Origin: Candidatus Cybelea sp. | GTDB lineage: Bacteria > Vulcanimicrobiota > Vulcanimicrobiia > Vulcanimicrobiales > Vulcanimicrobiaceae | NCBI GenBank assembly: GCA_049585055.1 | Contig: JBAUYZ010000068.1 | Span: forward strand, 15,528 to 79,527 | Direction of reading: 5' to 3' | DNA: 64,000 nucleotides | Shown: one piece after another, positions 11,526 to 54,792 of the stretch | Position numbering within the stretch: the first letter of the stretch is position 1 | Layout of the letters: every line of letters starts with the position of its first letter | Program-made: the position numbers and the translations under genes | Notes under the pieces: generated by a model | What the model was told of the DNA's origin: nothing | The model's database searches: none | The model's input: the letters and a program-made list of their open reading frames with translations, nothing else

Positions 11526-11579
11526 ATGCCTTGCTCATTGATCCGTGAATGGATCGGCGACCTCGAATTAGCGCGCATC

Positions 11580-17904: not shown

Positions 17905-20022
17905 CTAGCGGAGGAAGGCTACTAGTAGGAGGGCGACGATGTTGAGGACTTTGATCATTGGGTTGATTGCGGGGCCGGCGGTGTCTTTGTAGGGATCGCC
18001 GACCGTGTCGCCGGTGACGGCTGCCTGATGCGCGATCGAGCCTTTGCCGCCGTAGTTTCCGTCTTCGATGTATTTCTTGGCGTTATCCCAGGCGCCGCCG
18101 CCCGATGTAAACGAGATCGCGACGAAGAAGCCCGTGACGATCGAACCCAGGAGAATGCCGCCCATCATCTGCGCGCCGGTATCGCCGGGGAAGACGCCGG
18201 TGAATGAGAGGATGACGACGAGCAACGGAACGCCGACCGGAATCAATGCCGGAACGATCATCTCGCGCAGCGCCGCTCGCGTGACGATGTCGACGGTCGT
18301 TGCATAGTTCGGCCGCGCGGTGCCTTCCATGATGCCGGGAATCTCGCGGAACTGACGGCGCACTTCCTCGACGACCGAACTGGCGGCGCGTCCGACGGAC
18401 TGCATCGAGAGCGACGCGAAGAGATAGGGAAGGAGGCCGCCGATGAAGAGTCCGGTGAGCACGAACGGATTGCCGATTGCGAAGAGATTGCGAACGCCGT
18501 TGGTACAGGCGATCGTCGGCACGCCCGGGCACTTGTGGTTGATCAGTTGCTGCAGGAACGAGGCGAAGAGGACGATCGCGGCGAGCGCGGCCGAGCCGAT
18601 CGCGTAGCCCTTGGTGACGGCCTTGGTCGTATTGCCGACGGCGTCGAGCGGATCGGTGACGGCGCGCACGTCGTCCGGCATATCGGCCATCTCGGCGATG
18701 CCGCCGGCGTTGTCGGTGATCGGGCCGAACGAGTCGATCGCGACGATGATTCCCGCCATTGAGAGCATCGACATCACGGCGATGCCGACGCCGTAGACGC
18801 CCGCCATCGCGTAGCTGACCAGGATGCCCACCACGATGACGATTGCGGGTAGTGCCGTCGCCTGCATCGAGACCGCGAGACCGGCGATGATGTTCGTCGC
18901 GTGACCGGTGAGCGAAGCCTTTGCGATCGAGCGTACCGGTCCGAACTGCGTGCCGGTATAGTATTCGGTTATGAGCGTGATAAGCGCCGTGATAACGATG
19001 CCGACGACCGCACAGATGAATATGCTGTTCTGGCCGATGCCCGCGGCAACGGCCTCCGGCGCGCCGAAGACACGCTGCGTGGCAAAGTAGAAGCCGATCA
19101 GCGCGAGAATGCTGGCGACCACCATTCCACGGTAAAGCGCGGCCATGATCTTCGTTTTGCGGACCTGGCCGACGCCGACGAAGATGACGCCGACGATCGA
19201 AGCGACGATCGAGACTGCGCCGAGTAGGAGCGGGAACGTGGTTGCGTTCGGAATCGCCGCGCCGAAGAGCAGATTGCCGAGCAGCATCGCGGCGACCGTC
19301 GTAACGCAGTACGTCTCGAAGAGGTCGGCCGCCATGCCGGCGCAGTCGCCGACGTTGTCGCCCACGTTATCGGCAATGACGGCCGGGTTGCGCGGATCGT
19401 CTTCAGGAATTCCGGCTTCGACTTTTCCGACCAGGTCGGCGCCGACGTCGGCGGCCTTCGTATAGATTCCGCCGCCAAGACGCGCAAATACGGAGATCAG
19501 CGAGCATCCGAAAGCGAGCCCGACCATCGCGTTGAGCGACGTGGCGGAATCGCCGTTGTTGACGGCTTGGAGTATCGCGTAATACCCAGAGACGGCGAGC
19601 AGTCCCAGACCGACGACCAACATGCCGGTAACCGAGCCACCGCGAAATGCGACGTTGAGCGCCGGCGTAAGGCCGCCGCGCGCCGCTTCGGCCGTGCGAA
19701 CGTTCGCGCGCACCGACACGACCATCCCGATGAAACCGGCAGCTCCCGAAAGGATGGCGCCGATCAAGAAACCGATGGCGGCTTCCTTGCCGAGCGTCGG
19801 AGCGAAGAGTATCACGATCGCGAGAACGATTGCGACGATCCCGATCGTCATATACTGACGCTGGAGAAATGCCATCGCGCCTTCTTGGATCGCGAGGGCG
19901 ATCTCGCGCATGCGCTCGTTGCCGGCGGGCTGGGCGATCACCCAGAAGGTCAGCGCGATGCCGTAGAGCACCGCGAGGGCTCCGCCGATAAGTCCGGTGT
20001 CGATCGCTGTCTGTGCGGTCAT
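17905..20022 (-). CDS. hppA: membrane-bound H+-translocating pyrophosphatase (K+-independent type)
   Basis: A 705-aa ORF with [20 protein letters not shown] and [15 protein letters not shown] (Lys rather than Ala) is the published K+-independence signature. Confidence 0.95.
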
Positions 20023-32612: not shown

Positions 32613-32741
32613 CCGCTCGCCCTTCGCCCTGTGCGAAGCGCAGTCCTGAGCGGCGCCTGGTGAGACCGCTTCAGGCAGGGCCTTAACGTGGCGTTAATCG
32701 GCATGACGATAAACTAGAGCGTACCTACTCTCTATAAGGAG

Positions 32742-33776
32742 TTGTCTGTGAGAGCATTCCTGGTTCGCTGCTTCACCACGGTCGTCGTTGCCGCGGCCCT
32801 GACCCTGCCGGCCGTCGCGGCAACCCAGCTCACCGGTGCCGGATCGAGCTTCGACTACCCGTTTTTCTCGAAAGCCTTCTACATCTATAGTGAGAAGAAT
32901 CCGGAGGCGACGGTCAACTACCAGTCGATCGGCAGCGGCGGCGGCATCCAGCAGTTCACCGCCAAGAACGTCGACTTCGGTGCGACGGACGTGCCGATGA
33001 ACGCCGCGGAGCTCGCGCGCGCCGGTCAACCGGTGCTGCAGATACCGGTGGCGCTCGGCGGCGCGGCGGTCGCTTACAACGTACCCGGCGTGACCGCGAC
33101 GATTCGGTTGACCCGCCAGGTGCTCGTCGACATCTACCTGGGCAAGGTGCTCAAGTGGAACGATCCGCAGATCGCCAAACTGAACCACGGGGTCAATCTT
33201 CCCGACATGCCGATCGTCGTCGTGCACCGTTCCGATGGCTCGGGAACCAGTTATATCTTCACCGATTTCTTGAGCCGGGTTTCGGCCGAGTGGAAGAACA
33301 AGGTCGGCGTCGGTAAGAGCGTTTCGTGGCCGGCCCCAAGCGCGATCGGCGCCAAAGGGAACGAAGGTGTCGCGGGCCAGATTCGCAGCACCCCGGGAGC
33401 GATCGGTTACGTCGAACTGGCGTACGTCCTGGAAAATCATATGCCGGCGGCGATCTTGCAGAATCGCGCCGGGAAGTGGGTTGGCTGCACTCCCGAGAAC
33501 GTCGCGGCCGCCGCGGCTACCAAACCGAACGTGAGTCCCACGAACTTCTCGATCACCGACGCAGCGGGCGCGAGCTCGTATCCTATCTCGGGCTACTCCT
33601 GGGTCGTAGTCTACAAGAAACCGGCGGACGCAACGCGCGCCAAGGCACTCTACGACGTGCTCTCCTGGCTGGTCGGTCCCCAGGGACAATCGAATGCGAA
33701 GTCGGTCGACTACGTACCGTTGCCGGTAAACGTGCAGAACGCGGCCTCGGCAACGCTACGCCAAATGCAGCGCTGA
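32742..33776 (+). CDS. pstS: phosphate ABC transporter substrate-binding protein
   Basis: Motifs GAGSSFDYPFF, GSGGGIQQF and RSDGSGTSYIFTDFL are present. The likely start is the GTG at 32748, 6 nt after AAGGAG. Confidence 0.93.
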   Translation: MSVRAFLVRCFTTVVVAAALTLPAVAATQLTGAGSSFDYPFFSKAFYIYSEKNPEATVNYQSIGSGGGIQQFTAKNVDFGATDVPMNAAELARAGQPVLQIPVALGGAAVAYNVPGVTATIRLTRQVLVDIYLGKVLKWNDPQIAKLNHGVNLPDMPIVVVHRSDGSGTSYIFTDFLSRVSAEWKNKVGVGKSVSWPAPSAIGAKGNEGVAGQIRSTPGAIGYVELAYVLENHMPAAILQNRAGKWVGCTPENVAAAAATKPNVSPTNFSITDAAGASSYPISGYSWVVVYKKPADATRAKALYDVLSWLVGPQGQSNAKSVDYVPLPVNVQNAASATLRQMQR

Positions 33777-33780
33777 TTGC

Positions 33781-33976
33781 CGTTCGCCCTTCGTCCTTCG
33801 CCCTTCGACTTCGCTCGCTACGCTCGCTGCGCTCAGGATGACACAATTCGAGGTGACACGTTCGAGATGACACGTTTGGGATGACACGTTTGGGATGATA
33901 CGTTTGGGATGATACGTCCGAGATGACTGGTCCTTCGACTCCGCATCGCTTCGCGATGCTACGCTCAGGATGACAC
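33781..33976 (+). repeat. REP/MITE-like compound element filling the pstS-pstC gap, including about 7 tandem 14-nt GATGACACGTTTGG-type units
   Basis: A standard unit at 33781-33845 is followed by GGTGACACGTTCGA GATGACACGTTTGG GATGACACGTTTGG GATGATACGTTTGG GATGATACGTCCGA GATGACTGG, then a second standard unit ending at 33976. Confidence 0.9.
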
Positions 33977-33977
33977 G

Positions 33978-34916
33978 GTGGTAGAGCCGCAGTTTAGGCG
34001 CGTAGCGCGTTTCGTTAGTCCCGCCGATCGCGGCTTTGCTGCGGTGGTCTACGGCGGAAGCATTCTCTTTGCAGTGTTGATCGTCGGCCTCTTTGTCGAG
34101 CTGGTGCTCGGATCGTGGCCCTCGATTGTGACGTTCGGGCCCTCGTTCATTTGGAAGAGTTCCTGGGATCCGATAACGAGTAAGTTCGGGGCGCTCCCGA
34201 TGATCTACGGGACCGTGGTGACGTCGTTCATCGGGATCATCCTGGCCGCATTCGTCGGGATCATGGCGGCCGTCTTTCTCGCCGACTTCGCGCCGCGGTG
34301 GCTCGCGACGCCGCTCTCGTTCTTGATCGAGCTGCTGGCGGCGGTCCCGAGCGTCGTCTACGGCTTGTGGGGGCTCTTCGTGCTCTCGCCGTTCGTACGC
34401 ACCGTCATCGGACCGGCGCTCCAACACGTCCTGGGATGGACTCCGCTCTTCTCGGGGCCGATCTACGGCGTGGGCCTGCTGACCGCGGGCATTATTCTCG
34501 CCTTGATGATCGTTCCGACCGTCACGGCGATCTCGCGCGACGTGATCGCGGCGATACCGCGCGACCTGCGCGAAGCCTCAATGGCGCTCGGCTCGACGAG
34601 ATGGGAGACCGCGACGCGCGTGGTACTGCCCGCCGCGCGCGTGGGAATCTTCGGAGCTTGCGTACTCGCGCTGGGCCGCGCGCTCGGCGAGACGATCGCG
34701 GTGACGATGGTGATCGGCAACCGGCCGGAGATCTCCGCCTCACTCTTCGCGCCGTCGTATACGCTGGCTAGCGTAATCGCCAACGAGTTCACCGAGGCGA
34801 CGACCAGCATTTACATCAGCGCGCTGATCGAGTTGGGTCTGATCCTCTTCGTGGTGAGCATCGTCGTCAACGCGCTCGCGCGGTTCATGATCTGGAGCGT
34901 TCGGGGATCGCGATGA
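33978..34916 (+). CDS. pstC: phosphate ABC transporter permease PstC
   Basis: SWPSI lies near the N-terminus and the EAA-type loop [14 protein letters not shown] is present. The GTG start is 7 nt after AGGA, which belongs to the last repeat copy. Confidence 0.92.
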
Positions 34917-35773
34917 GCCTGCGCTATCAGCGGCTCGGTTACCGGAGGGCATACGGGTCGATCGGAACGGCGCTCGCTCTTTGCTGCGCGGCGCTTGCCG
35001 CCGGCGCGCTGCTCGCGATTCTCGGTTACGTCGTGGTGCAGGGCGCGGGCGCGATCAACTGGGCCTTTCTCACGCAGCTGCCGCACCCGATCGGCGTGCC
35101 GGGCGGGGGCGTCGGCAACGGCATACTCGGAACGATCATCATCATCGGCCTCGCGACGGCGATGGCCGTGCCGGTCGGCTTGCTCACCGGAATCTATCTC
35201 GCGCTCTTCGGACGAGGTGCGATTCCCGAAGCGCTGCGGTTTCTCTCCGACGTGCTCTCGGGTGTGCCGAGTATCGCAATCGGGCTCTTCGCGTACGCGG
35301 TGCTCGTCGCGCCGCTCAAACACTTCTCCGCAATCGCCGCGTCGTTCGCATTCATGATGCTGATGCTGCCGCTGCTCGTGCGGACGTCCGAGCAGGCGAT
35401 TCGCTCGGTGCCGCAGACCGTTCGCGAAGGCGCGCTCGCGCTGGGCATGTCAAACTTTCGCGCAACGGTTCACATCGTGCTGCCGACTGCGCGACCGGCG
35501 ATCATCACGGCGCTCTTGTTGGCGATCGCGAGAGTAACCGGCGAGACGGCGCCGCTGCTCTTTACCGCATTCGGCACTCAGTTCTGGGAGACGAATCCGA
35601 ACCACCCGATGGCGGTGCTCGCGCTGCAAGTCTTCAACTACGCGATCTCGCCCTATCCCAGCTGGCAGGCGCAGGCGTGGGCCGGCGCGCTCCTGCTCGT
35701 GGTCGCGGTCTTCATCTTGAGCTTGGGAGCACGCCTGATGCTCCGGCGCGCCATGCGGGGGCTCGACAGTTGA
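34913..35773 (+). CDS. pstA: phosphate ABC transporter permease PstA
   Basis: ATGA overlap with pstC. The EAA loop [15 protein letters not shown] is present. Confidence 0.92.
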
Positions 35774-35805
35774 CGGTCACCGAGGCGGCGGTCGGCGGTG
35801 CGGTG

Positions 35806-36576
35806 ATGAGCGATGCAGTGATGGCGACGCAGGAGTTGAGCGCGTATTACGGCGAGCGCAAAGCCGTCGGCGACGTCTCGATCGGATTCACGCGCAAGGC
35901 CGTGACGGCGCTGATCGGTCCGTCGGGGTGCGGGAAGACGACGCTCTTGCGATGCCTGAACCGGATTCATGAAGTGGGATTCGACGCGCGCGTGCAGGGG
36001 CGCGTGCTGCTCGACGGCCAGGATATCTATGCCGGCGGGATCGATCCGATGTCGATCCGCCGGCGCGTCGGAATGGTTTTTCAGCGCCCGAATCCCTTTC
36101 CGACGCTCTCGATTCTCGACAATACGCTGGTATGCGCGGCGAAGGGTCTCAATCGCCGGCAGAGGCTCGAATGCGCGGAGAAGGCCCTGCGAGCGGCGGC
36201 GCTCTGGGAAGAGGTAAAAGACAAGCTGCGCAGCAGCCCGTTGCGTCTCTCGGGCGGACAGCAGCAGCGGCTCTGCATTGCGCGCGCGGTCGCCGCGGAG
36301 CCGGATGTCTTGCTGATGGACGAGCCGACCGCCTCGCTCGACCCGATTGCGACGGCGATCATCGAGGAGCTGATGGCATCGCTCGCCGAGGAGTTTACAA
36401 TCGTGGCCGTGACGCATAACATGCAGCAAGCCGCACGCGTCTCAGATCGCACGGCGTTCATGCTCGCCGACGAAAGCGGCGTGGGAAAGTTGATCGAGAT
36501 CGACGACACGGCGAAGCTCTTCACCAAACCCAGCGACCGCAGAACCGAAGACTACATCACGGGCCGGTTCGGCTAA
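35806..36576 (+). CDS. pstB: phosphate ABC transporter ATP-binding protein
   Basis: Motifs [23 protein letters not shown] and LLMDEPTSALD-like are present. The in-frame ATG at 35806 gives 256 aa. The track ORF 34981-36576 is an artefactual 5' extension across pstA. Confidence 0.93.
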
Positions 36577-36610
36577 AAGGCGCGGTCCCACGTCCCGCGA
36601 ACCGCCGTGC

Positions 36611-36655
36611 CGCCCTTCGACTGCGCGCCTGCGGCGCTACGCTCAGGATGACACG
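36611..36655 (+). repeat. REP/MITE-like intergenic element (single consensus-like copy)
   Basis: The sequence is CGCCCTTCGACTGCGCGCCTGCGGCGCTACGCTCAGGATGACACG. Confidence 0.85.
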
Positions 36656-36683
36656 GGGTGAGCGAGCGCTAAATCGGGGGGCG

Positions 36684-38075
36684 TTAGAAGTCGTCGTCGG
36701 GGGTGTTGTAGTCGATGGGCTGGTTTTCGAAATACGAGGCTGAGTATTTTGTTCGGATTTGCGTGAACGGACGCGGTTTGCGGTTGAAGCTGAAGCAGTC
36801 CGTGAGATCGTGCGAACGAACGTCGGTTCGTCCGAGCGATCCGAGATCGAACGTCTTCTCGATGAACTTCAGAATGCTGCCGAACTCGTAACGGACGTGA
36901 GAGACGTGCCCTTGCTTCGCATACGGCGAGATTACGATCAGCGGCACACGGAAGCCGTCCTCATAAGAGTTGTAGACCGTCGGCGGGACGTGGTCGTACC
37001 ATCCGCCCCAGTCATCCCAGATCACGAAAATCGCCGTGTTGCTCCAATACGGACTGTTGCCGATCGCGTTCACGATCGAGGCTACCCACGATGGACCGGT
37101 GCCGTTATTCTTAGCGGGATGATCCGACTCGTCCGAGCTCGGAGTGACGAACGTGACGTCGGAGAGTTGGCCGGCTGCGACGTCTTTCAAGACCTTCGAC
37201 GAGGGCCAAACTACGTTCTGGTACGACCGGCCTTGCCAGATTGGCTTGAGCGCGTCGACCGCGTGCCACTCTCCGGAGCCGTGAAACTCCTGATAGTAGT
37301 GCCAACTGACGCCCTTGACGTTCATTAGCCGGAAGATCGAGTCGCGAACGAAGCAGGGAAATACGGCCGTCGCTTCGTTTCCTTTCGGGTCGATCGTCAC
37401 GACCGTCGCGTCTTGTAGCGAATCGCATCCGCCTTGACGCTGACGCCCTTGCGGGTCGCTGGGGTTCTCGGCGGCCTTGAGGTTGGATCGATCGCTGATT
37501 GCCGACGTTGCGCTGACGATATACTGGTGCGCCGGGAAACTGGGACCCTGATTCGTCTGGAACATCCGGTCGCCGAAGGTGTACTGCCCGGCGAGGTCCC
37601 AGTACGGCTGGACGTCGCCGCGCGGCACGTACCCGTATGAAGCGACGTCGGCTCGCGGGCACTTGTAGCTGCTCTTCGAGTAACAGTTTTCGGTCTCGGT
37701 GTCAAAGCCGTCCATCTGCCCGTTGGCGTCGTCCTGCACCCAGGCCGAATGCTTGTGCGAGATATCGTAGGGTGCGGTCAGCGGAGTCGAGACGAGCTGC
37801 ACCGTCTGCCCGCGCGAGTTCTTCCCGGACTGCACGGTGTCGGCGCCCGGAAATCCGTTGAAGAGATTATCGACCGACCGATTCTCTTGAACGATGACAA
37901 CGACGTGCTTGATGCGATGCGCGTCGGGCTGTACGTCGGGCCGCAGTTGGATCAGCTGCGGGACGTTCTGCGGGGTGCCGAGCGGCGTTCCAAACGGAGA
38001 AGAACATCCGGCCGTCGCGAGCATCGCGGCAACGAGAACTGCTCCCGCTAGTCTACTTACACGGAATTGGATCAT
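36684..38075 (-). CDS. phosphoesterase-family lipoprotein (PF04185), PE2
   Basis: Lipobox ATAGC is present, with IKHVVVIVQENRSVDNLF, SDESDHP, GPSWVASIVNAIG, IWDDWGGWYDHVPP and FRVPLIVISPYA. Confidence 0.9.
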   Translation of the reverse strand: MIQFRVSRLAGAVLVAAMLATAGCSSPFGTPLGTPQNVPQLIQLRPDVQPDAHRIKHVVVIVQENRSVDNLFNGFPGADTVQSGKNSRGQTVQLVSTPLTAPYDISHKHSAWVQDDANGQMDGFDTETENCYSKSSYKCPRADVASYGYVPRGDVQPYWDLAGQYTFGDRMFQTNQGPSFPAHQYIVSATSAISDRSNLKAAENPSDPQGRQRQGGCDSLQDATVVTIDPKGNEATAVFPCFVRDSIFRLMNVKGVSWHYYQEFHGSGEWHAVDALKPIWQGRSYQNVVWPSSKVLKDVAAGQLSDVTFVTPSSDESDHPAKNNGTGPSWVASIVNAIGNSPYWSNTAIFVIWDDWGGWYDHVPPTVYNSYEDGFRVPLIVISPYAKQGHVSHVRYEFGSILKFIEKTFDLGSLGRTDVRSHDLTDCFSFNRKPRPFTQIRTKYSASYFENQPIDYNTPDDDF

Positions 38076-38135
38076 CGCCGTAAGATTTGCGTCGCGAACG
38101 GCCCGATGCCCTGCGTTACGGTTGCGAGCGAGCGG

Positions 38136-39206
38136 TTACTTTGTGCTCACGGCTGCACCGAGCGGTTCGACGAGGCCGGCGCCGGCGTTGTAGTTGGTCG
38201 GTGTGCCGCCCGCATCGTATGGCCAGCGGTTCGCCGTGGTCGCGGTATAACCGCACGATTCATAATCGGAACCGGCGATATATCGCTGACCGTTCGCGGC
38301 GATGACGCCTCCGGCGAGGTCGCAGACCGCGCCGCCCTGGTAGTTGGTAAGGTTGGTCGTGCCGGTAATCGTTGCGGTCGAACCCGAGAGGGAGAGCCAA
38401 TAGATGCACGAGGATGGGCTGCCGCCGCACGCCTGATCGCCGAGCGCAAGGTAATTGCCGCTGCGGTACCACTGAATCATGCCCGATACATGGAGCGTCC
38501 CGCCGCTCAGGCTTATCAACTGCGTGGTGCTGCCGCCGGCCGGAAGTTCGGCGAAATAGCTGGTGACGCGGCTCGAATCCATTCCGTCGAAGAAGAGGTT
38601 GCCCGCGTTATCGTAGCCGACGAAGAAGTAGAGATAAAAGCTGGGGTTCGTATAGGTCGTGGGGGTGCCCGACGCGTTGGCGAAGACCATCAGGTTGCCG
38701 GCGCCTCCGCTCGTGCTTTCGATATTCGTGACGGCGAGGTCGTTGGTCGATTTGTTGACCGCGCAGCCGGCCGGATACTCGCCGTACACGCTGAGCGTCT
38801 TGAGCAGCGCTCCGGTGCGCGAGTAGAGCTGCATCGCCGAAGCGCCGGTGTTTGCGACCCAGATGTTCCCGCCGGCATCGGCGCAGTCGCCTTCGGGGAA
38901 ACTGAGCCCGGTGAGTTGCCCCTTGAGTGCCATGCCCGGCATGGTAAAGATGTCGACGTCGCCGGCGCCATAATCGGAAATGAAGAGCAAGCGCGGCGCG
39001 AGCTTCGCGTCGGGCGCTATCCAACTGGCGCGGTGATTCAGGCGCGCGGCGGAGACGGATCGCGGCGCCGGTGCCGGCGCCATTGCGCCGCGGATAGTCG
39101 CGGGCGAGACGGCGGCGGGCGTGGACCCTTGCTGCGAGGCGTTGCCGCAGGCCGCGAGCATGGCTGCGGCGGCGGCGAGTGAGATCGAAATGGCGAGCTT
39201 CTTCAT
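38136..39206 (-). CDS. family-A-related propeller-like lipoprotein (copy A7, divergent)
   Basis: Lipobox MLAACG is present. The blocks CAVNKSTNDLAVTN, FFVGYDNAGNLFFDG and AELPAGGSTTQLISL align with the A-family blocks. It lies 60 nt upstream of PE2 on the same strand. Confidence 0.75.
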   Translation of the reverse strand: MKKLAISISLAAAAAMLAACGNASQQGSTPAAVSPATIRGAMAPAPAPRSVSAARLNHRASWIAPDAKLAPRLLFISDYGAGDVDIFTMPGMALKGQLTGLSFPEGDCADAGGNIWVANTGASAMQLYSRTGALLKTLSVYGEYPAGCAVNKSTNDLAVTNIESTSGGAGNLMVFANASGTPTTYTNPSFYLYFFVGYDNAGNLFFDGMDSSRVTSYFAELPAGGSTTQLISLSGGTLHVSGMIQWYRSGNYLALGDQACGGSPSSCIYWLSLSGSTATITGTTNLTNYQGGAVCDLAGGVIAANGQRYIAGSDYESCGYTATTANRWPYDAGGTPTNYNAGAGLVEPLGAAVSTK

Positions 39207-39281
39207 GCATAAGGATTCAATTAGACGACCGCTTCCCCTGTATGGGCGGCAGCATCGTCCGTAGGAGTCGCGTCGTTCGTT

Positions 39282-40730
39282 TTGGAAGCCGGGATACAGG
39301 AGGAAACGCTGGTTTCCAAGCTGTTGCTCGTACCGATTCTCGCCGGTCTCGTGTTCTGCGCGGGCTGCTCGTCATACGGCAGCCTCTCGCCCCGCGGCGC
39401 GGCCTCGCTGCCCATGCGGGGAGAGCGTTCCGCGGCGCGGGCAACCGGGGATGTGGTGCGGCGGCATATCAAGCACGTCATCGTGATCATCCAGGAGAAC
39501 CGAAGCTTCGAGAACCTCTTCGCCGGATATCCCGGAGCCGACGCGCCGATGACCGGCTGTGCGCGGGGAAGCGCCCCCGATTTCGTAGAGCACTCCGGCG
39601 CTATGGTTCATTGTCCAAAAGGCGATACGGCCGTGCCGCTCCACCAAGTGACCTTTAAGAACAACCCCGATCTTCCGCATAACTGGGGCGCTGCGATCCG
39701 GGATTGGGACGACGGCAAGATGGATGGCTTCTCCGAGTTTGGGAAGAAACCGGACGCGGCCTACGCGTATCTCGAGCGCTCCCAGGTTGCGCCGTACTGG
39801 ACGATGGCCGCGCAGTACGTGCTCGCCGACAAGATGTTTCCGACCGAGTTCGGCGGGAGCTTCACCGCGCATCTGACCCTGGTCGCCGGCACCGACGATC
39901 TCGAGCTTCCGTCGACCGCCGAAGTCGATTTTCCCAATGCCGCGCCCGACGACTGCGATTCACCGCCCGGCACGAAGAGCTCGTACATTACCGAAAACCG
40001 CACGGTCCATTACTACAAGGGCCCGTTCCCGTGCTTCGATCAGTTCAATACGATCGCCGAGGTGCTCGATAAGGCGAGCGTTTCGTGGAAGATCTACGCG
40101 ACGCGCGTGCTCGACGGCGGATTCTGGGAGCCGTTCGAGGGGATCAAGTACGTGCGCTACGGTCCCGACTGGCCGGGTGATATCGTCGCTCCGCAGACGA
40201 GGATTTTGACGGATCCGGCGAGCGGCAACTTGGCCGACGTAAGCTGGGTGACGCCCGACTACGCCGACTCCGATCACCCGGCGCATCATAGCGATCGAGG
40301 ACCGTCGTGGGTTGCCTCGATCGTGAACGCAATCGGCGAGAGTTCCTACTGGCGTTCGAGCGCGATCGTGATTCTGTGGGACGATTGGGGCGGCTTTTAC
40401 GATGACGCCTCCCCGCCGCAGCTCGACTATCGCGGGCTTGGCATTCGGGTGCCCTGTCTAATCGTGTCGCCGTATGCGAAGCAGGGTCACGTTTCGAGCG
40501 CGCAATACGAGTACGGCAGCATTCTTCGATTCATCGAAGAGGTTAACGGCCTCCGCGCGGGCAGCATCGGACCGGTTAAAAAGGGCTATACGGACGGCCG
40601 CGCGACCGGCCTCGAAGATGCCTTCGACTTCAACCAAAAACCGCGCGCGTTCTCGCCGATTCCGACGAAGTATCCGGCCTCGTATTTCCTGCACGAGCGG
40701 CCCTCGAACGAACCGCTCGATACGGAGTAG
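39282..40730 (+). CDS. phosphoesterase-family lipoprotein (PF04185), PE3
   Basis: Lipobox FCAGC is present, with IKHVIVIIQENRSFENLF, ADSDHP, GPSWVASIVNAIG, LWDDWGGFYDDASPP and IRVPCLIVSPYA. The exact start is uncertain: TTG at 39282 or CTG at 39309 after AGGAGG. Confidence 0.88.
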   Translation: MEAGIQEETLVSKLLLVPILAGLVFCAGCSSYGSLSPRGAASLPMRGERSAARATGDVVRRHIKHVIVIIQENRSFENLFAGYPGADAPMTGCARGSAPDFVEHSGAMVHCPKGDTAVPLHQVTFKNNPDLPHNWGAAIRDWDDGKMDGFSEFGKKPDAAYAYLERSQVAPYWTMAAQYVLADKMFPTEFGGSFTAHLTLVAGTDDLELPSTAEVDFPNAAPDDCDSPPGTKSSYITENRTVHYYKGPFPCFDQFNTIAEVLDKASVSWKIYATRVLDGGFWEPFEGIKYVRYGPDWPGDIVAPQTRILTDPASGNLADVSWVTPDYADSDHPAHHSDRGPSWVASIVNAIGESSYWRSSAIVILWDDWGGFYDDASPPQLDYRGLGIRVPCLIVSPYAKQGHVSSAQYEYGSILRFIEEVNGLRAGSIGPVKKGYTDGRATGLEDAFDFNQKPRAFSPIPTKYPASYFLHERPSNEPLDTE

Positions 40731-40733
40731 GCC

Positions 40734-42065
40734 GTGCGTCTCTACCTCATGCTGATCGTCGCTTTGAGCCTCTCCGCTTGCAGCGGCCCGTCGCGCTCGG
40801 TCCCGCCGGCAGAGGACGCGAGCCGCGGCGAGGTGCGCCGTCTCGACGCCGCGACGCCGATCAAGCACGTCGTGATCATCGTTCAGGAGAACCGAACCGT
40901 CGACAATCTTTTCAACGGCTTTCCCGGTGCCGATACGGTTCGCAGCGGTCGAACCTCGGAGGGGCGCGTCGTCGCGTTACGGCCGATCCACCTGGACGGC
41001 TACGTTGCGATCGCGCACGCACACGACACGTTCGTCACCGAGTACGCGGCCGGGAGAGTCGACGGCTTCAATCTTGCCAAGACCTGGTGCTCGCACCACG
41101 CGCAGTGTCAGCCGACGCCCTACGGGTACGTTCCGAAGACGGACGTCGAGCCGTACTGGGATATGGCGCGCGAGTACACGCTGGCGGATCATCTCTTTCA
41201 AACCAACCAAGGCCCGAGTTTCCCCGCGCACCAGTACTTGGTGAGCGGGACGTCGACGATCAGCAACGACTCGCTGCTTCGCGCCGCCGAGAACGCGTCG
41301 ATGCCAAACGGAAAAGGCACGGGCGGCTGCGATTCACCGACGGGATCGCACGTTGCGGTGATCGATCCGCAAGGAGAACAGCGGTGGAGGGTCTACCCCT
41401 GTTTCGACCGCCTTTCGCTGATGGGAGAAGCGAACCACGACGCACTTAGCTGGCGATACTATCAGGCGGTCAAAGGCGCGGGCATATGGAACGCGCCCGA
41501 TGCGCTACGAGCCATACGATACAGCAACTCGTACGAGAACGTGGTCGCGCCGTCGAAACGCATTCTGGAGGACGTTGCTCGGGGAGATTTGGCGAATATT
41601 ACGTGGGTGACTCCGACGCTGCACGAGTCGGATCACGCGGGGTCGAATAAGGGAACCGGCCCGTCGTGGGTAGCCTCGGTCGTGAACGCGATCGGTGAGA
41701 GCCCGTATTGGAAGTCGACCGCGATCTTCGTTCTCTGGGACGATTGGGGCGGTTGGTACGATCACGTCGCACCGAAACAGGAGAACTCGTACGAGCTCGG
41801 TTTTCGCGTGCCGCTGCTCGTTATCTCGCCATATGCCAAGCCGCACTACGTCTCGCACGTTCCGCACGAATTCGGAAGCATCTTGAAGTTCGCGGAAGAG
41901 ACGTTCGGCCTGCCCTCGATGAAAACGACCGACGAACGGTCGGACGATCTTTCGGACTGCTTCAACTTTCACGCGCTCCCGCGCAAGTTTACGAAAATCC
42001 GCGCCAAGTACTCATCGCAGTACTTTCTGCACCAGCCGGCGGACCGAGAATCCCCCGCCGATTAG
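40734..42065 (+). CDS. phosphoesterase-family lipoprotein (PF04185), PE4
   Basis: GTG start 3 nt after the PE3 stop. Lipobox LSLSAC is present, with IKHVVIIVQENRTVDNLF, HESDHA, LWDDWGGWYDHVAP and FRVPLLVISPYA. Confidence 0.9.
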   Translation: MRLYLMLIVALSLSACSGPSRSVPPAEDASRGEVRRLDAATPIKHVVIIVQENRTVDNLFNGFPGADTVRSGRTSEGRVVALRPIHLDGYVAIAHAHDTFVTEYAAGRVDGFNLAKTWCSHHAQCQPTPYGYVPKTDVEPYWDMAREYTLADHLFQTNQGPSFPAHQYLVSGTSTISNDSLLRAAENASMPNGKGTGGCDSPTGSHVAVIDPQGEQRWRVYPCFDRLSLMGEANHDALSWRYYQAVKGAGIWNAPDALRAIRYSNSYENVVAPSKRILEDVARGDLANITWVTPTLHESDHAGSNKGTGPSWVASVVNAIGESPYWKSTAIFVLWDDWGGWYDHVAPKQENSYELGFRVPLLVISPYAKPHYVSHVPHEFGSILKFAEETFGLPSMKTTDERSDDLSDCFNFHALPRKFTKIRAKYSSQYFLHQPADRESPAD

Positions 42066-42204
42066 GAGCTTCTCTACCTAGGCCGCCGCGGCGCGGTGAC
42101 GTTTTCGAACGGATTATGCGGTAGAGTGGCATCTGGCCGCTTCCTTTCGCCCCGGCGAGGGAGAATGGGCCAAGGCAAACGACTCTACTTTTTGGAGGAA
42201 ACCA

Positions 42205-43170
42205 GTGAAAATCATCAGCTCGATCGTTGCCGCCACGCTCCTGGCGGGCTGCGGCGCCGGATTGAATCCCGCTCCCCCGGCAACGACCGTCGCGGACTCC
42301 TCGCTCTCGAGGCCCGACGCAGGCGTGCACGTCTTCACCGCCAACCGCGACAACCCGGGCGTTCTCTCGTTCTCCAACAAGGCGAACGGGAACGTCGCGC
42401 CGGCGCATACGATTGCGGGTTCGAAGACGAAGCTCAATTCACCCGACGCGCTCGCCCTCGATTCGAAGGGCAACATTTACGTGGCAAACGACGGCGCGAA
42501 CACCGTGCAGGTCTTTGCTTCGAACGCCAACGGCAACGTCAAACCGAAGCGGCAGATCGGTGGGACGAAGTCCCAGCTCGGGCCGACCGAGGGTCTTACA
42601 ATCGATCACTCGGGGAATCTCTGGGCATCGAACTACCAAGGGAACGCGGTTACCGAGTACGCCGCGGGCGCGCATGGGAACGTTGCGCCGATCGATACCA
42701 TCAGCGGGAACAAAACGCAGCTCGCTACCCCAGTCGGAATGGCGATAGATAAGAGCGGCCGGCTTTGGGTGGCCAACAAAGGCTCGAGCAGCGTCACCGC
42801 CTTCGCGAATGGCGCGAGCGGCAACGTCGTGCCGGTGGTAACCATCAGCGGCAACAACACGGGTTTGAGCGGTCCGTTCGCGATTGCGTTCGATTCGACC
42901 GGGCGGCTTTTGGTTGCCGACGAAGGCGCCGGCGTCTTCGTCTTCGCAAAGGGCGCGAGCGGCAACGTCGCGCCGGTGCAGCACATCACCGGGCTTCTCT
43001 ATCCGACCGGCGTCACCGCCGACGCAAAAGACCGCATCTGGGCGGCCGATTTCTCCGGCAACGCGATCGTCGAATATGCCAAGAACGCCAACGGAAGCGC
43101 GACGCCGATGAGGACGATCCAAGGCTCGAGCACGGGCCTCGATGCGCCCTGCTACATCGCGTTATTCTAA
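42205..43170 (+). CDS. six-blade propeller-like lipoprotein, 'GNVAP' repeat family (B1)
   Basis: GTG start after GGAGGA, with lipobox LLAGC. It contains six repeats of about 48 aa, each with [NHS]G[ND][VA].P....I.G..T.L..P.G...D..G...VA. Confidence 0.8.
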   Translation: MKIISSIVAATLLAGCGAGLNPAPPATTVADSSLSRPDAGVHVFTANRDNPGVLSFSNKANGNVAPAHTIAGSKTKLNSPDALALDSKGNIYVANDGANTVQVFASNANGNVKPKRQIGGTKSQLGPTEGLTIDHSGNLWASNYQGNAVTEYAAGAHGNVAPIDTISGNKTQLATPVGMAIDKSGRLWVANKGSSSVTAFANGASGNVVPVVTISGNNTGLSGPFAIAFDSTGRLLVADEGAGVFVFAKGASGNVAPVQHITGLLYPTGVTADAKDRIWAADFSGNAIVEYAKNANGSATPMRTIQGSSTGLDAPCYIALF

Positions 43171-43195
43171 GCCAACTGGAATACAGGAGCAGCCG

Positions 43196-44170
43196 ATGAG
43201 AATCTTCATTGCATCGATGGTCGCTCTGGCGTTGACGGGATGCGGCGGGGGTGCCACCCCCGCCCTTCTCGGCGCCGATTCGACGGCGCGGTCGCAGGCC
43301 GCGCGGCCGAATGCCGGGATGCGAATCTACACCGCAAATCGCAACACCGGGAGCGTCATCGCCTTCGCCGCGAACGTCTCCGGCAACGTCTCGCCGGTGG
43401 TGACGATCGCCGGATCGAGCACGACGTTGACGAACCCCGATTCGATCGCATTGGATGCCGCGGGAAATATCTATACCGCAAACGACAGCGGCACGACGGT
43501 TGCCGTTTTCTCGCCGCACGCCAACGGCAACGTCGCGCCGAAAAGAACCATCGGCGGATCGAAGTCGCATCTCGGGCCGACCGAAGGGCTCTTGATCGAT
43601 CCCTCCGGAAACCTTTGGGTAACCGATTTTCGCGACAATGCGATTACCGAGTATGCGGCCGGAGCACACGGAAACGTGACCCCGATCGACACCATCAGCG
43701 GCAGCGACACGCAACTCGACACGCCGACCGGGATGGCAATGGACTCAAGCGGCCGTCTCTTCGTCGCGAATCCGTATGGGCCGTACGCCGGATCGATCGT
43801 CGCATTTGCAAGCGGGGCGAGCGGCGATGCGACGCCGGTCGTTTCCATTAGCGGCAGCAACACGGGCCTCAGCCGGCCGTACGCGCTCTCCTTCGACTCG
43901 ACCGGCCGGCTGCTGGTCGCCGATGAAGATAACGGCGTGCTGATCTTCGCAAGCGGTGCGAATGGGAACGTGGCGCCGGTAGCGACGATCTCGGGGATGT
44001 CCATGGTCGACGGGATCGCGACCGACGCGCAGGACCACGTCTACGCGGCGGGATACCTCGGCCCGATAAACGAGTATCATTCGAATGCGCACGGCAACGC
44101 GACGCCGATTCGCTCGATTGCGGGTTCGAACACAACCATCAACGGAGCGGCGCATTTGGTCGTTCGCTAG
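43196..44170 (+). CDS. six-blade propeller-like lipoprotein, 'GNVAP' repeat family (B2)
   Basis: ATG after CAGGAG, with lipobox LALTGC. It has the same six-repeat layout as B1, blade for blade. Confidence 0.8.
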   Translation: MRIFIASMVALALTGCGGGATPALLGADSTARSQAARPNAGMRIYTANRNTGSVIAFAANVSGNVSPVVTIAGSSTTLTNPDSIALDAAGNIYTANDSGTTVAVFSPHANGNVAPKRTIGGSKSHLGPTEGLLIDPSGNLWVTDFRDNAITEYAAGAHGNVTPIDTISGSDTQLDTPTGMAMDSSGRLFVANPYGPYAGSIVAFASGASGDATPVVSISGSNTGLSRPYALSFDSTGRLLVADEDNGVLIFASGANGNVAPVATISGMSMVDGIATDAQDHVYAAGYLGPINEYHSNAHGNATPIRSIAGSNTTINGAAHLVVR

Positions 44171-49820: not shown

Positions 49821-51281
49821 TTACTGGGTGTCGGGGGGGTCGGTCGAGAGGGGTTGGTGTAGGAAGTATGGTTGCGGGTACTTTGACGGGATCACTTTGA
49901 ACTTGCGCGGGGGCATGCTGAAGTTGAAGGCGGTGCCGATGCTGGTGGAACGCGCGTCGTTGCGGCCGAGCGTGCCGAGGTTCCAGTTGTCTTCGATGAA
50001 GTGAAGGATGCTGCCGAACTCGTAGACCGTGTGCTCGACGTGCGGTTTGACGTAGGGCGAAACGACGAGCATCGGAACCCGAAATCCCGGGCCACCCTGC
50101 CAGTTTCGCGGGCGGGGCGGAGCGACGTGGTCGTAGAGGCCGCCCCAGTCGTCCCAGACGACGACGACCGCGGTCGAGTTCCAATAGCTGCTCTTGCCGA
50201 TCGCGTTGACGATCGATGCGACCCACGAGGGTCCCGTATCTTTACTCGCGCCGGGATGATCGGAGTTGGGCGTGTTCGGCGTAATCCACGATACCGCCGG
50301 GAGCCGATGCTTGGAGATATCGGTGAAGATGTCGACCGGCGTTCGTGTGACGTTCGTTTGCCACTGCGAGCTGTACCGGACGGCGTGAATGGCGTCGAAG
50401 GCGCTCCAGATGCCGGGCGTATTGCCGCGGCCCGGATCGCTCTTTTCGTACTTTAGAACCTTCACGGCATAAAACTTCCACGAGACGGATTTGGCGTCGA
50501 GCAGATCGCGCAGCGTCGTGTAGGTAAAGCATGGGAAGGGTCCGGCGTAAGGATGGACGGTGCCGTCGCGCTTAATGACTGCCGTGACGAGGCGATGCGA
50601 TCCCGTTTTGAGTCCGTCGCAGCCCCACGGGAACCAGGTCGGATTATCGATTAGCGCCTCGTCGGACGAGAGCTTGGTGCCGCCGGCGATGAGCTCTTGA
50701 TGCGCGGTAAAGCTCCCGCTGCCTTGGTCTTGAAAGGTGTGATCGGCCAGAACGTATTGCTTGGCCATGTCCCAATACGGTGCGATGTCGGCCGGATTGA
50801 CGTATTGGTAGGGATAGGTGCATGCGGGCCCGCCGCCGCCGCCGGCACCGATCTGTTCTTTGTCGAATCCGTCCATCTTGTTCTTATCGCGCTCGGTTTG
50901 AAATCCGCTGTAATTATGATTGAGATCTTTTCCGGTTTGCAGTCCAAAGCCGCTCGGAAATCCCACACCGAGCAGACTTACCTCAGTGAGCGGGACCGTG
51001 GTCTCTCGCGGTACGGGCGTGGGACAACCCCAGGATGACGGGATCGGCTCGGCTTTACCGACTTTCGTACCGTCGGCGCCGGGAAACGTCGCGAAGAAGT
51101 TGTCGAAACTGCGGTTCTCCTGAATGACGATGATGACGTGCGCGATCGGCGTGCTCGCCGCGGCGTCGCGCATTGCGGGAAGCACCGTGCTTCCTTGGGA
51201 GAACTTGCTGCCCGAGCAAGCGAGGACGCCGCCGGCTACGCCGGCAAGGAGAAGCAAAAAGCTCGCGCGGGGTGGTCTCAT
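49821..51281 (-). CDS. phosphoesterase-family lipoprotein (PF04185), PE5
   Basis: Lipobox VLACSG is present, with IAHVIIVIQENRSFDNFF, NSDHP, GPSWVASIVNAIG, VVWDDWGGLYDHVAPP and FRVPMLVVSPYV. It is most similar to PE1. Confidence 0.9.
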   Translation of the reverse strand: MRPPRASFLLLLAGVAGGVLACSGSKFSQGSTVLPAMRDAAASTPIAHVIIVIQENRSFDNFFATFPGADGTKVGKAEPIPSSWGCPTPVPRETTVPLTEVSLLGVGFPSGFGLQTGKDLNHNYSGFQTERDKNKMDGFDKEQIGAGGGGGPACTYPYQYVNPADIAPYWDMAKQYVLADHTFQDQGSGSFTAHQELIAGGTKLSSDEALIDNPTWFPWGCDGLKTGSHRLVTAVIKRDGTVHPYAGPFPCFTYTTLRDLLDAKSVSWKFYAVKVLKYEKSDPGRGNTPGIWSAFDAIHAVRYSSQWQTNVTRTPVDIFTDISKHRLPAVSWITPNTPNSDHPGASKDTGPSWVASIVNAIGKSSYWNSTAVVVVWDDWGGLYDHVAPPRPRNWQGGPGFRVPMLVVSPYVKPHVEHTVYEFGSILHFIEDNWNLGTLGRNDARSTSIGTAFNFSMPPRKFKVIPSKYPQPYFLHQPLSTDPPDTQ

Positions 51282-52581: not shown

Positions 52582-53841
52582 TTACGGCGTCAAAGCAAAG
52601 ATCGTTCCGTAACCGCGGTGGCCGCCGAAAATGGTGGCGCCGTATAACGCGCCGTTGAGCGTGAGCAGCCCGGGTGCCGGTACCTTGCCGCCCGAATTGC
52701 AGTCGAAGGCATACGCGATGCGTTCGGCACCCGATTGGCTGACTTGAAATACCGTCCCGCCGTCGCTCCCCGAGACGCCGCAGACGTTGCCTCCTGAGGA
52801 GGTACCGTAGAGCATTCCGCCGTCGGCAACCAACGTACCCTGCGGGTAGAGACCGTCGGGCGCTCCTTTGAAGGCATAGAGCACCGACTCGGAACCCGAA
52901 GCACTCGTCTCGAAGACGGTTCCGCAGTTGCATGCCGACCCGCCCTGCGTCGTCGTTCCGTAGAGCCGGCCTTTACGCAGGATCAATCCGCCTGACGGAT
53001 TGCCGCCGTCGGGTCCGCCCCCGAACCGATAGAGCACCGTCTCGTTGCCCGCAGCACTCACTTGGAAGATCGTCCCGCAGTCGTTGCCGCAACCGTTTCG
53101 GCCGCCAAGGTAGGTGGTTCCGTACAGAGTACTGCCGACCGCGAGCAGCGCTCCTTCGGGGAGCGCGCCGTCGTCGCCGCCGGTGAAGCGGTGCAGTACG
53201 CGTTCGTGACCTGCGGTGTCGATTGCGAAGAGCGTGCCGCACCCGTTGGCAAAGAAGTTGCGGCACATTCGGTTTCGTCCGCCGACCCAAGTGACGCCGT
53301 AAAGCGTATGGTCGAGCCGAGTTAGGCCGACGATCGGCGCGACGCCGTCGGAGCCACCTTTGAAACGGTAGAGCACTCGCTCTTGACCGGAGGTCGTGAC
53401 CGAAAAGACAGTTCCGCATCCAGGGATGCCGAACGGAGTCTGCGGGCAGTGGCGCCCTCCGGCGCCGGTCGTTCCATAGAGCGCGCCCTTCACGGCGATA
53501 AGCCCACCGTTAGGCGATCGTCCATCGGAGCCGCCCGCAAAACTATAGATCACGCGCTCCACACCCGAAATGCTGATGGAAAAGATGGTGCCGTCGTCGT
53601 GCGTACCGCCGTGTTGCGTCGTGCCGTAGAGGGCGCCGTTAAATGCGGTGAGCGCACCGGTCGGCGTGGACCCATCTTTGGTCGGGCTCTTGAAGTCGTA
53701 GAGGTTGACGTAGCCGCCGCTCGTTAGCAACCGCGCCGCGGACGAGTCGGCCGAGACGGGTGGAGTTGAGTTCGCGCGATCCGCGCAGCCTCCGAGCATT
53801 ATCGCTGCGACGCAGACGGCGCCGAATCGGAAGGATTGCAT
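52582..53841 (-). CDS. GloVer tandem-repeat lipoprotein (second copy)
   Basis: The ATG at 53841 gives MQSFRFGAVCVAAIMLGGC. About 7 repeats of GCGT(V/I/L)F.(V/I)...G.ERVLY.F.GG.DG..P.G.L....G.LYGTT follow. Confidence 0.8.
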   Translation of the reverse strand: MQSFRFGAVCVAAIMLGGCADRANSTPPVSADSSAARLLTSGGYVNLYDFKSPTKDGSTPTGALTAFNGALYGTTQHGGTHDDGTIFSISISGVERVIYSFAGGSDGRSPNGGLIAVKGALYGTTGAGGRHCPQTPFGIPGCGTVFSVTTSGQERVLYRFKGGSDGVAPIVGLTRLDHTLYGVTWVGGRNRMCRNFFANGCGTLFAIDTAGHERVLHRFTGGDDGALPEGALLAVGSTLYGTTYLGGRNGCGNDCGTIFQVSAAGNETVLYRFGGGPDGGNPSGGLILRKGRLYGTTTQGGSACNCGTVFETSASGSESVLYAFKGAPDGLYPQGTLVADGGMLYGTSSGGNVCGVSGSDGGTVFQVSQSGAERIAYAFDCNSGGKVPAPGLLTLNGALYGATIFGGHRGYGTIFALTP

Positions 53842-53925
53842 GGGGGTCGGTACCTTCGAGCAGACTGCGCGCCGTTCCCCGAGGGGTGCGAAACCCCGGT
53901 CGCGGGTGAGCCGGTCGTTAGCAGT

Positions 53926-54792
53926 ATGAAGATTCGCATCGTGCCCGCGCGGCAATTACTCGAAGGCGGCGGCTTCGTCGTCCATCGCCCGTTCCCGGTC
54001 GACGGCCTCTCGTACGTCGATCCGTTTCTCTTGGTCGACGAGATGGGACCGGCGGAGTACGGCCCCGGTGAGGCAATCGGAGCTCCGGACCACCCGCATC
54101 GCGGCTTCGAAACGGTGACGTACATGATCGACGGCGCGATGCAGCACGAGGATTCGCACGGACATCGCGGTGAGATCCGCAGCGGAGACGTGCAGTGGAT
54201 GACGGCGGGCGCGGGCGTGGTTCATTCGGAGATGCCGGCGCCAGACATCCTCGAGCGGGGCGGGAAGATGCACGGCTTTCAGATTTGGGTGAATCTTCCG
54301 AGAGAGCGGAAGATGGCGCAGCCGCGTTATCAGGAGTACGCCAGCGCGCAGCTCCCGGAATACCGGCAAGGCGGGCGCTGGGTGCGCGTGATCGCCGGGG
54401 AAGCCGACGGACGCCGCTCGCCGATCGAGACGAGCATTCCGACGACGATGCTGCACGTGCGGCTCGATGCCGGAAGCTCGGCCTCGTTTGCGATCGCGCC
54501 GGGCTCGAACGCAATCGTCCACGTGATCTCCGGCGCCGGAACGGTGTCGAACGACGAGGTGAGCGCGCACGAGGTGGCGATCGTCGAAGATTCGCCGGCG
54601 CAGCTCGAGCTTGCGGCGGGCCAGGACGGTTTCGAGTTTCTGCTGTTGGCGGGCCTGCCGATCGGCGAACCGGTTGCGAGATACGGACCATTCGTGATGA
54701 ACACTGTCGACGAGGTGAGGCGCGCGTTTGACGATTTTCACGCGGGGCGGTTTGGTGAAATCGGGACGTCTGCCCCGGGAGCGCCGTCGTGA
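53926..54792 (+). CDS. pirin-family protein
   Basis: Motifs HPHRGFETVTYMIDG and GDVQWMTAGAGVVHSEMP are present. The ATG at 53926 gives MKIRIVPARQ. Confidence 0.9.
   Translation: MKIRIVPARQLLEGGGFVVHRPFPVDGLSYVDPFLLVDEMGPAEYGPGEAIGAPDHPHRGFETVTYMIDGAMQHEDSHGHRGEIRSGDVQWMTAGAGVVHSEMPAPDILERGGKMHGFQIWVNLPRERKMAQPRYQEYASAQLPEYRQGGRWVRVIAGEADGRRSPIETSIPTTMLHVRLDAGSSASFAIAPGSNAIVHVISGAGTVSNDEVSAHEVAIVEDSPAQLELAAGQDGFEFLLLAGLPIGEPVARYGPFVMNTVDEVRRAFDDFHAGRFGEIGTSAPGAPS

Follow-up and report, generated by a model that had tools for sequence, protein, structure and literature searches.

The 64-kb stretch of Candidatus Cybelea sp. DNA analyzed here (contig JBAUYZ010000068.1; the whole stretch is referred to below as the window) raises the question of why five genes encoding lipoprotein-type phosphoesterases of the PF04185 family (PE1–PE5), together with genes encoding six-bladed propeller lipoproteins (families A and B), are found in one region with pstSCAB, the genes of a high-affinity phosphate importer, and whether these enzymes contribute to phosphate supply. 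The answer towards which we lean, with modest confidence, is that the locus represents an arsenal for organic-phosphate scavenging, in which AcpA-like membrane-anchored phosphoesterases would have accumulated beside a putatively Pho-box-controlled pstSCAB operon, with the propellers as facultative binding partners. The gene map was obtained from the listing of open reading frames (ORFs) and from Pfam and NCBIfam scans, and the part of it on which the argument is built is as follows:

32742-33776, plus strand: pstS, periplasmic phosphate-binding protein (TIGR00975, 362 bits, cutoff 205; also PF12849)
33978-34916, plus strand: pstC, permease (TIGR02138, 307 bits, cutoff 196)
34913-35773, plus strand: pstA, permease (TIGR00974, 251 bits, cutoff 193)
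about 35776-36576, plus strand: pstB, ATPase (TIGR00972, 337.3 bits, marginally under the cutoff of 343.2)
36577-36683: convergent spacer of 107 nt between pstB and PE2, with an interspersed repeat inside
36684-38075, minus strand: PE2, PF04185 lipoprotein-type phosphoesterase (E = 2.6e-53)
38136-39206, minus strand: A7, six-bladed propeller lipoprotein of family A, upstream of PE2 on the same strand
39207-39308: divergent promoter region of about 100 nt between A7-PE2 (left) and PE3-PE4-B1-B2 (right), as seen in a three-way alignment
39309-40730 (alternative TTG start 39282), plus strand: PE3, PF04185 lipoprotein-type phosphoesterase (E = 1.3e-57)
40734-42065, plus strand: PE4, PF04185 lipoprotein-type phosphoesterase (E = 8.5e-49)
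42205-43170, plus strand: B1, six-bladed NHL propeller lipoprotein (NHL 66 bits, SGL 60 bits)
43196-44170, plus strand: B2, tandem paralogue of B1 (56% identical), clear NHL/SGL propeller
8140-9126, plus strand: A1, propeller lipoprotein of family A, whose stop overlaps the PE1 start (ATGA)
9123-10568, plus strand: PE1, PF04185 lipoprotein-type phosphoesterase (E = 8.6e-54)
49821-51281, minus strand: PE5, PF04185 lipoprotein-type phosphoesterase (E = 1.6e-58), standing alone

The gene order given in a preliminary description of this DNA, namely, pstSCAB followed by PE2 and A7 on the minus strand and by PE3, PE4, B1, and B2 on the plus strand, with PE1 and PE5 elsewhere in the window, was borne out by this map. 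The pstS, pstC, pstA, and pstB genes formed a single plus-strand operon, and the four equivalog models were matched in the order of the PstSCAB importer; according to the translation, the start of pstB is probably GTG at 35776 or ATG at 35806.

PF04185 genes beside pstSCAB in related genomes

The association between the two systems was assessed from both sides. On the transporter side, 80 loci centered on pstS relatives from metagenomes were analyzed, about 40 of which belonged to a clade with the layout thrS<->pstSCAB … SDR-SDR-phaC. The stretch from pstB to the first SDR gene was a variable slot in this clade, and PF04185 genes, with or without propeller genes, were found in it in L083, L085, L095, L096, L100, L123, L001, L027, and L163, as well as in the window (L numbers designate related loci). 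A PF04185 gene was located within 5 kb after pstB in half of the ten metagenome loci that extended at least 5 kb past pstB; with the addition of the window, L001, and L027, this was the case in 8 of 13 pst loci of the Cybelea-like clade. The proxy background was obtained by counting, in 78 unrelated PE loci, the PE genes separated from the central one by more than 5 kb; it amounted to 2 genes in 629 kb (1 per 314 kb), compared with five in the 64 kb of the window, and predicts about 0.2 of 13 loci. This estimate is rough, since the background was drawn from different genomes and the loci are relatives of one another. The PF04185 genes on the pst side stemmed from at least seven PE lineages in the tree. 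Thus, PF04185 genes are in large excess beside pst within the Cybelea-like clade.

On the enzyme side, 80 loci centered on PE2 relatives were collected from species-representative genomes and then searched with the window proteins; the closest of them belonged to metagenome-assembled genomes (MAGs) named Candidatus Cybelea, Eremiobacteraeota, or Vulcanimicrobiota. The pstSCAB genes were nearby in two of these loci (L001 and L027), which are orthologous loci of close relatives. One conserved group of the remaining PE loci was situated amid DnaK/DnaJ, CoA-transferase, acyl-CoA dehydrogenase, and lipoate genes. A recurrent ABC ATPase near PE genes was considered as a possible phosphate system and rejected, as it belongs to this housekeeping block (DnaK/J, CoA transferase, LipAB). 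It should also be noted that a 436-aa ORF of L001 (2794-4104) with no Pfam match is inserted between the two SDR genes and recurs in 18 of the 80 PE loci, where it has 19 copies; it may be an unclassified insertion element.

The closest arrangement was found in four relatives (L027, L083, L163, and L085), in which a PF04185 gene co-directional with pstB began 55-120 nt after it. In three of them, this was a sixth PF04185 lipoprotein gene, PE6, on the same strand as pstB:

L083, 13680-15122: PE6
L027, 11407-12918: PE6
L163, 7001-8428: PE6

In these three loci, PE6 began about 55 nt past pstB and had its own Shine–Dalgarno sequence, and the pstS gene of L083 was 96% identical to that of the window; in L085, two different PE genes occupied the position after pstB. 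In the window, the first ~25 nt past the pstB stop were homologous to L083 and were followed by the …GCTCAGGATGACAC… repeat, so that the PE6 position was filled by about 80 nt holding an interspersed repeat, which suggests that PE6 was lost from the window by a repeat-associated deletion. In the long-read MAG L027, PE6 (11407-12918) and pstB (12947-13600) were split by frameshifts, which are probably assembly errors rather than signs of pseudogenes.

Type and location of the phosphoesterases

All five PE sequences matched PF04185 with 167-199 bits against a cutoff of 23, over profile positions 1-356, which confirmed the family assignment made in the preliminary description. The three subtypes proposed there also held: PE2 and PE4 were 57% identical, PE1 and PE5 48-51%, and PE3 was 41-44% identical to PE1 and PE5. 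In the tree, PE3 joined PE1 and PE5 in one large clade, and PE2 and PE4 were in another; the PE2 orthologues of L001, L027, and L083 had 76-89% identity. The likely start of PE3 is a rare CTG at 39309, or else an in-frame TTG at 39282; at the conserved position 39309, L001 has TTG and both L027 and L083 have GTG, and a GGAGGA Shine–Dalgarno sequence precedes this codon by 5-6 nt.

The QEN motif, a conserved His, the G-S-F nucleophile stretch, SDHP, and WDDWGG were invariant in the alignment of PE1–PE5. According to the alignment with the AcpA and phospholipase C (PLC) structures, the catalytic set, consisting of Glu/Asn (QEN), the hydroxyl nucleophile, two His, and Asp-Asp/Glu, was present in all five enzymes; the roles of the corresponding residues of AcpA and NPC4 have been described (PMC9837106). 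PE4 carried Ala (VAIAH) at the position where the other four have Asp (D-x-x-H), equivalent to D76 of NPC4, mutation of which reduces NPC4 activity (PMC9837106). As judged from these residues, PE1–PE5 are probably active enzymes.

The closest solved structure was Francisella tularensis AcpA (2D1G), with E = 2e-24 when PE3 was compared by itself and 1e-44 when the profile of all five sequences was used. The PE proteins share the fold family of AcpA and of the Burkholderia-type acid phosphatases (TIGR03397), with a single domain of about 450-500 aa, and have the QEN and DD metal/base residues of AcpA, the Ser nucleophile being aligned with Ser175; nevertheless, they are only about 25-30% alike, AcpA has S-T-P-G-A after the nucleophile where the PE motif is S-F-T/P-A-H, and AcpA is a soluble secreted protein, whereas the PE proteins have many paralogues and, according to their leaders, would be lipid-anchored. 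The Pho-regulated PF04185 PLCs (Pseudomonas PlcH/PlcN, Burkholderia PLCs, and plant NPC4) have the same catalytic domain. However, the nucleophile position is occupied by Thr in the four PLC structures read (8yk5, 9gy2, 9gye, and NPC4, T158 in PMC9837106) and is followed by PNR in the 8yk5 alignment, and these PLCs contain one or more C-terminal domains, whereas the PE proteins (443-497 aa) have Ser followed by T/P-A-H and consist of a single domain with no extra Pfam domain and no PLC C-terminal domain. PlcH/PlcN-type PLCs are also distinguished by a Tat (twin-arginine) leader, whereas the PE leaders are of the lipoprotein type; no twin-arginine motif was found in the PE N-termini. The scores were 132-143 bits for the TIGR03397 acid phosphatase model (cutoff 362.75) and 104-138 bits for the TIGR03396 PC-PLC model (cutoff 580.25). 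Since the PE sequences are far below both cutoffs and have AcpA-like features, PE1–PE5 are read as a separate AcpA-like branch of PF04185, resembling Francisella AcpA more than the phospholipases C.

The N-termini of all ten proteins (PE and propellers) begin with a hydrophobic leader followed by [small][small]C, with several atypical residues at position -3. The lipoboxes ascribed to the five enzymes in the preliminary description can therefore be kept in part: the hydrophobic leader ends in a small residue and Cys in all five, but the -3 residue is non-canonical in PE2, PE3, and PE5. The leader of PstS is an ordinary signal peptide (…PAVA|ATQ) with no lipobox. The window comes from an uncultured, Candidatus Cybelea-like soil bacterium of the family Baltobacteraceae (Eremiobacterota). 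Vulcanimicrobium alpinus, the sole cultured member of this family, has a typical diderm envelope and a growth optimum of pH 6 (PMC9758169). Given a diderm relative and a PstS leader that fits the periplasm, the cell surface is only one possible location of the enzymes, and membrane anchoring in the periplasm appears equally likely. Consequently, of the surface scavenging system proposed earlier, the intact PF04185 enzymes with lipoprotein-like export leaders stand, but the surface location gives way to a choice between periplasm and surface.

An identical stretch of 24 nt, CTTCCCCTGAGCCTGTCGAAGGGT, which encodes LPLSLSKG, immediately follows the lipobox Cys in A1, PE1, and A3 (8212-8235, 9201-9224, and 13052-13075, respectively). 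It resembles the interspersed intergenic repeat of this genome (…CCTGAGCCTGTCGAAGGG…CAGGrTGACA) and looks like an exonised repeat forming a lipoprotein tether.

The Pho-box-like element and the propellers

One candidate regulatory element was identified upstream of pstS:

32682-32700, plus strand: Pho-box-like element CTTAACGT-GGC-GTTAATCG, two 8-bp direct repeats with a 3-bp linker

The element was followed by a conserved A/T-rich -10-like block (TAAACT in the window). The element, with consensus nCTTAACnTnnnGTTAATCGn, was found a single time before pstS in each clade locus whose sequence extended far enough (at least 35 pstS upstream regions), and weaker versions were found at the more distant pstS loci L121 and L144. 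The site at pstS of the window scored 34.7 with a position-weight matrix derived from 30 distinct sites, the next best match in the 64 kb being 10.4. The cyanobacterial SphR Pho box is CTTAACCT, consisting of 8-bp tandem repeats with a 3-bp linker (PMC1906773); the window element has the same 8-3-8 layout as this SphR/PhoB box, a near-identical repeat consensus, and a similar position just upstream of a -10-like sequence. The cyanobacterial box has at least three repeats, whereas the window element has two clear ones and, in the sequence available, is present only at pstS. Reading of the element as an inverted repeat (TTAACG-N3-CGTTAA) was rejected, since the palindrome is not conserved in relatives and the direct repeats are. 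PhoU, response regulator, and histidine kinase genes were not found among the approximately 50 ORFs scanned in the window, in agreement with the absence of phoU and phoBR near pst reported earlier.

Neither in the window nor across some 2.5 Mb of related loci (more than 150 PE and propeller genes) did any PE, A, or B gene have a matrix match of 12 or more upstream, and an exact TTAA-N7-TTAA scan of the upstream regions of the PE units was negative everywhere except at pstS. The divergent A7/PE3 region contained its own conserved blocks in the three-way alignment and no Pho-box-like element, and no promoter motif shared by PE and propeller genes was detected beyond the homology of duplicated upstream regions. 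Thus, PhoB/PhoP-type direct repeats, sought upstream of each unit, were present before pstS but before no PE or propeller gene. Direct Pho control is plausible for pstSCAB and, via co-transcription, for PE6 in relatives; with the box located only at pstS, it is not supported for the five PE genes of the window, whose co-regulation with pst is unproven. Among RNA data, no runs containing the PE3–PE4 stretch were found, and the one metatranscriptome found via pstS contained solely fragments from relatives (assembler contigs, 85-95% identical).

The A and B propellers were the only unrelated families recurring around PE genes in the 80 enzyme-centered loci. In addition to A1 and A7, within-window blastp revealed the following members of family A, among which lipobox-like leaders were seen:

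11580-12554, minus strand: family-A propeller paralogue
12731-13987, plus strand: family-A propeller paralogue
14234-15211, minus strand: family-A propeller paralogue
10944-11525, minus strand: family-A fragment
17025-17561, minus strand: further family-A copy
58734-59726, plus strand: further family-A copy

In total, the window contained eight family-A copies or fragments and the B1/B2 pair. B1 and B2 exceeded the Pfam cutoffs for NHL and SGL, and all SGL/NHL matches of A7 were below cutoff. AlphaFold2 models built from alignments of 40-43 sequences had six blades for both A7 (pLDDT, predicted local distance difference test, 87) and B1 (pLDDT 92). The top Foldseek matches in the PDB were NHL/YWTD/TolB-type propellers for A7 and TRIM2/TRIM71 NHL, Pizza, and PknD sensor domains for B1; the neighbors of the two models also included LRP6, and Pizza proteins are derivatives of the PknD sensor domain. 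SGL-class enzymes were nearly absent from these lists (6-phosphogluconolactonase at rank 32 for B1), and the invariant columns of the B family comprised only Gly, Pro, and Thr, with no invariant acidic or His residue in the alignment. According to the models, A7 and B1 are generic six-bladed NHL propellers whose nearest structures are binding domains rather than enzymes, and binding or scaffolding is their likeliest role, an enzymatic one being less likely. Assignment of the propellers to PhoX, phytase, or lactonase was rejected, since the PhoX match spanned one blade (43/515 positions) and the structural neighbors are binding domains.

B1 and B2 share the six-bladed fold and the NHL/SGL signatures with TRIM2/TRIM71, Mycobacterium tuberculosis PknD, and SGL/YvrE-type lactonases. 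However, unlike TRIM2/TRIM71 and PknD, the window propellers are stand-alone lipoproteins without a kinase or RING module, and unlike the SGL/YvrE-type lactonases, the B family shows no conserved metal-binding or catalytic residues in its alignment, while family A is below the Pfam thresholds. The pknD gene presumably adjoins pst genes in M. tuberculosis. B2 was missing from L001 and L027 and present in L163, and therefore the B1/B2 duplication is polymorphic within the clade; an A7 orthologue without any PE gene was found in the pstB–SDR slot of L086 and L120.

Competing explanations and wider setting

In the explanation preferred here, the slot between pstB and SDR-SDR-phaC would have been repeatedly filled by lineage-expanded exported families, namely, Ser-nucleophile PF04185 enzymes and NHL propeller lipoproteins. 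The lipid-anchored PE proteins would act outside the cytoplasm of a diderm cell, in its periplasm or on its surface, and, being acid-tolerant phosphoesterases of broad range, would free orthophosphate from organic phosphorus compounds; PstS would capture the freed phosphate and PstCAB would import it. The propellers would probably be non-catalytic binding or scaffold partners, that is, facultative neighbors that may contact the enzymes rather than obligate subunits. In soil Burkholderia, PF04185 paralogues (AcpA and several PLCs) are among the proteins most induced by limitation of inorganic phosphate (Pi), with several Pi-limitation-induced PLC paralogues per genome and some of the genes near pst (PMC13700237), so that the idea of organic-phosphate scavenging has good precedent.

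Several observations weigh against this explanation. In 78 of the 80 enzyme-centered loci, the PE2/PE4-type genes are away from pst, some of them in housekeeping contexts; the pstB–SDR slot is empty in L090, L092, and L098 and contains unrelated cargo (NicO nickel transporters, carboxylesterase, epimerase, and 2-hydroxyacid dehydrogenase) in L093, L109, L111, and L118. PE6 is missing from the window, and its homologues with 68-76% identity occur in unrelated contexts, which confines the operonic arrangement to a narrow clade and led to the rejection of a dedicated pst-operon PE orthologue group as a general rule. The failure to reach either NCBIfam cutoff and the lack of Pho-box-like sites and shared promoter motifs before PE and propeller genes belong here as well. 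In the main rival explanation, the association would be a coincidence, the stretch from pstB to SDR-phaC being a gene-turnover hotspot that collects amplified, mobile PF04185 and propeller families with a role unrelated to phosphate, for example, in envelope maintenance or carbon foraging. Such a hotspot would explain why the slot of other relatives is empty or holds nickel transporters, carboxylesterase, epimerase, or alpha/beta hydrolase genes, why interspersed repeats and an insertion sequence (IS)-like ORF mark the region, why 97% of the PE2-type loci are not at pst, and why no PE gene is preceded by a Pho-box-like site; relatives of the PE6-like subfamily alone number more than 6600 at E <= 1e-30, often several per contig. 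On the other hand, it fits poorly with the very large enrichment next to pst relative to the proxy background, the involvement of at least seven different PE lineages, the operonic position of a PE gene after pstB in four genomes, and the Pho regulation of PF04185 enzymes in other soil bacteria (PMC13700237), and we consider it rather doubtful, although it deserves attention. Thus, the link to pst proposed in the preliminary description can be retained for the Cybelea-like clade, where 8 of 13 loci and the operonic copies of four relatives speak for it, but not for the bulk of the PE2/PE4-type loci, nor on the basis of a Pho box.

Alternatively, the PE proteins could be true phospholipases C or sphingomyelinases, acting on foreign membranes as a nutrient or on the cell's own phospholipids during remodeling, rather than general acid phosphatases. 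Most homologues are indeed automatically annotated as phospholipase C, TIGR03396 matches across the catalytic domain with E = 1e-30 to 1e-40, and PLC-type members of the superfamily are induced by Pi starvation (PMC13700237); however, the scores are about 460 bits under the PC-PLC cutoff, the nucleophile is Ser as in AcpA, the closest solved relative, and not Thr, the PNR of the 8yk5 alignment is absent, and so is the C-terminal domain that NPC4 requires for lipid hydrolysis (PMC9837106), which makes this function improbable. It is still less probable that each PE protein and its neighboring propeller lipoprotein form an obligate two-part machine, similar to the enzyme-plus-accessory pair PlcH–PlcR. 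Although 29 of 44 propeller genes are within 2.5 kb of a PE gene compared with 15.6 expected (p = 4e-5, not corrected for relatedness), a propeller gene lies within a 1.5-kb gap in 21 of 80 PE loci, and the A1 stop overlaps the PE1 start, the other 59 loci have no adjacent propeller gene, gene order is variable, as is orientation (same strand in 15 pairs, opposite strands in 12), PE5 has no propeller neighbor in the window, and A7 orthologues occur without a PE gene in L086 and L120.

To return to the scavenging explanation, the window is an ordinary lineage-specific expansion and a version of a known theme; the enzyme family, the transporter, and the type of regulation are all known, and no new mechanism is needed. 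It is set apart from known systems by lipid anchoring (as read from the leaders), by how far the family has expanded, by an association with NHL propellers that is loose but significant, and by the variable slot next to pst. Most of the phosphorus in acidic peat, tundra, and forest soils is organic, and Eremiobacterota are abundant there. Should the AcpA-like lipoproteins feed PstSCAB as acid phosphoesterases, part of soil phosphorus mineralization would proceed via a family that is not used as a marker. A broader proposal, which we regard as unlikely, is that Eremiobacterota in acidic soils poor in phosphorus harvest organic phosphorus mainly with AcpA-type lipoproteins, which would have NHL propeller lipoproteins as substrate-binding partners and form with them a modular, rapidly diversifying apparatus genetically tied to pst; if true, a major source of soil acid phosphatase activity would have been overlooked, since the marker genes phoC/phoN, phoD, and phoX do not register it. 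The CTTAAC/GTTAATCG box upstream of pstS provides a concrete handle for the Pho regulon of an almost uncultured phylum.

Several further genes of the window were recorded. Two lipoprotein paralogues with no Pfam match (4409-5713 and 52582-53955; 434 and 457 aa) were 37% identical; together with the PE, A, and B families, o6625 (DUF3466), and o29951, they bring the putative lipoproteins of the window to about 20. Amid the family-A lipoprotein genes, an effector-like gene with two transmembrane segments (DUF4231/SLATT_1) was found at 15847-16410. Between the PE1/A cluster and pst, an H+-translocating membrane pyrophosphatase (PF03030, 874 bits), likewise phosphorus-related, was encoded at 17905-20022.

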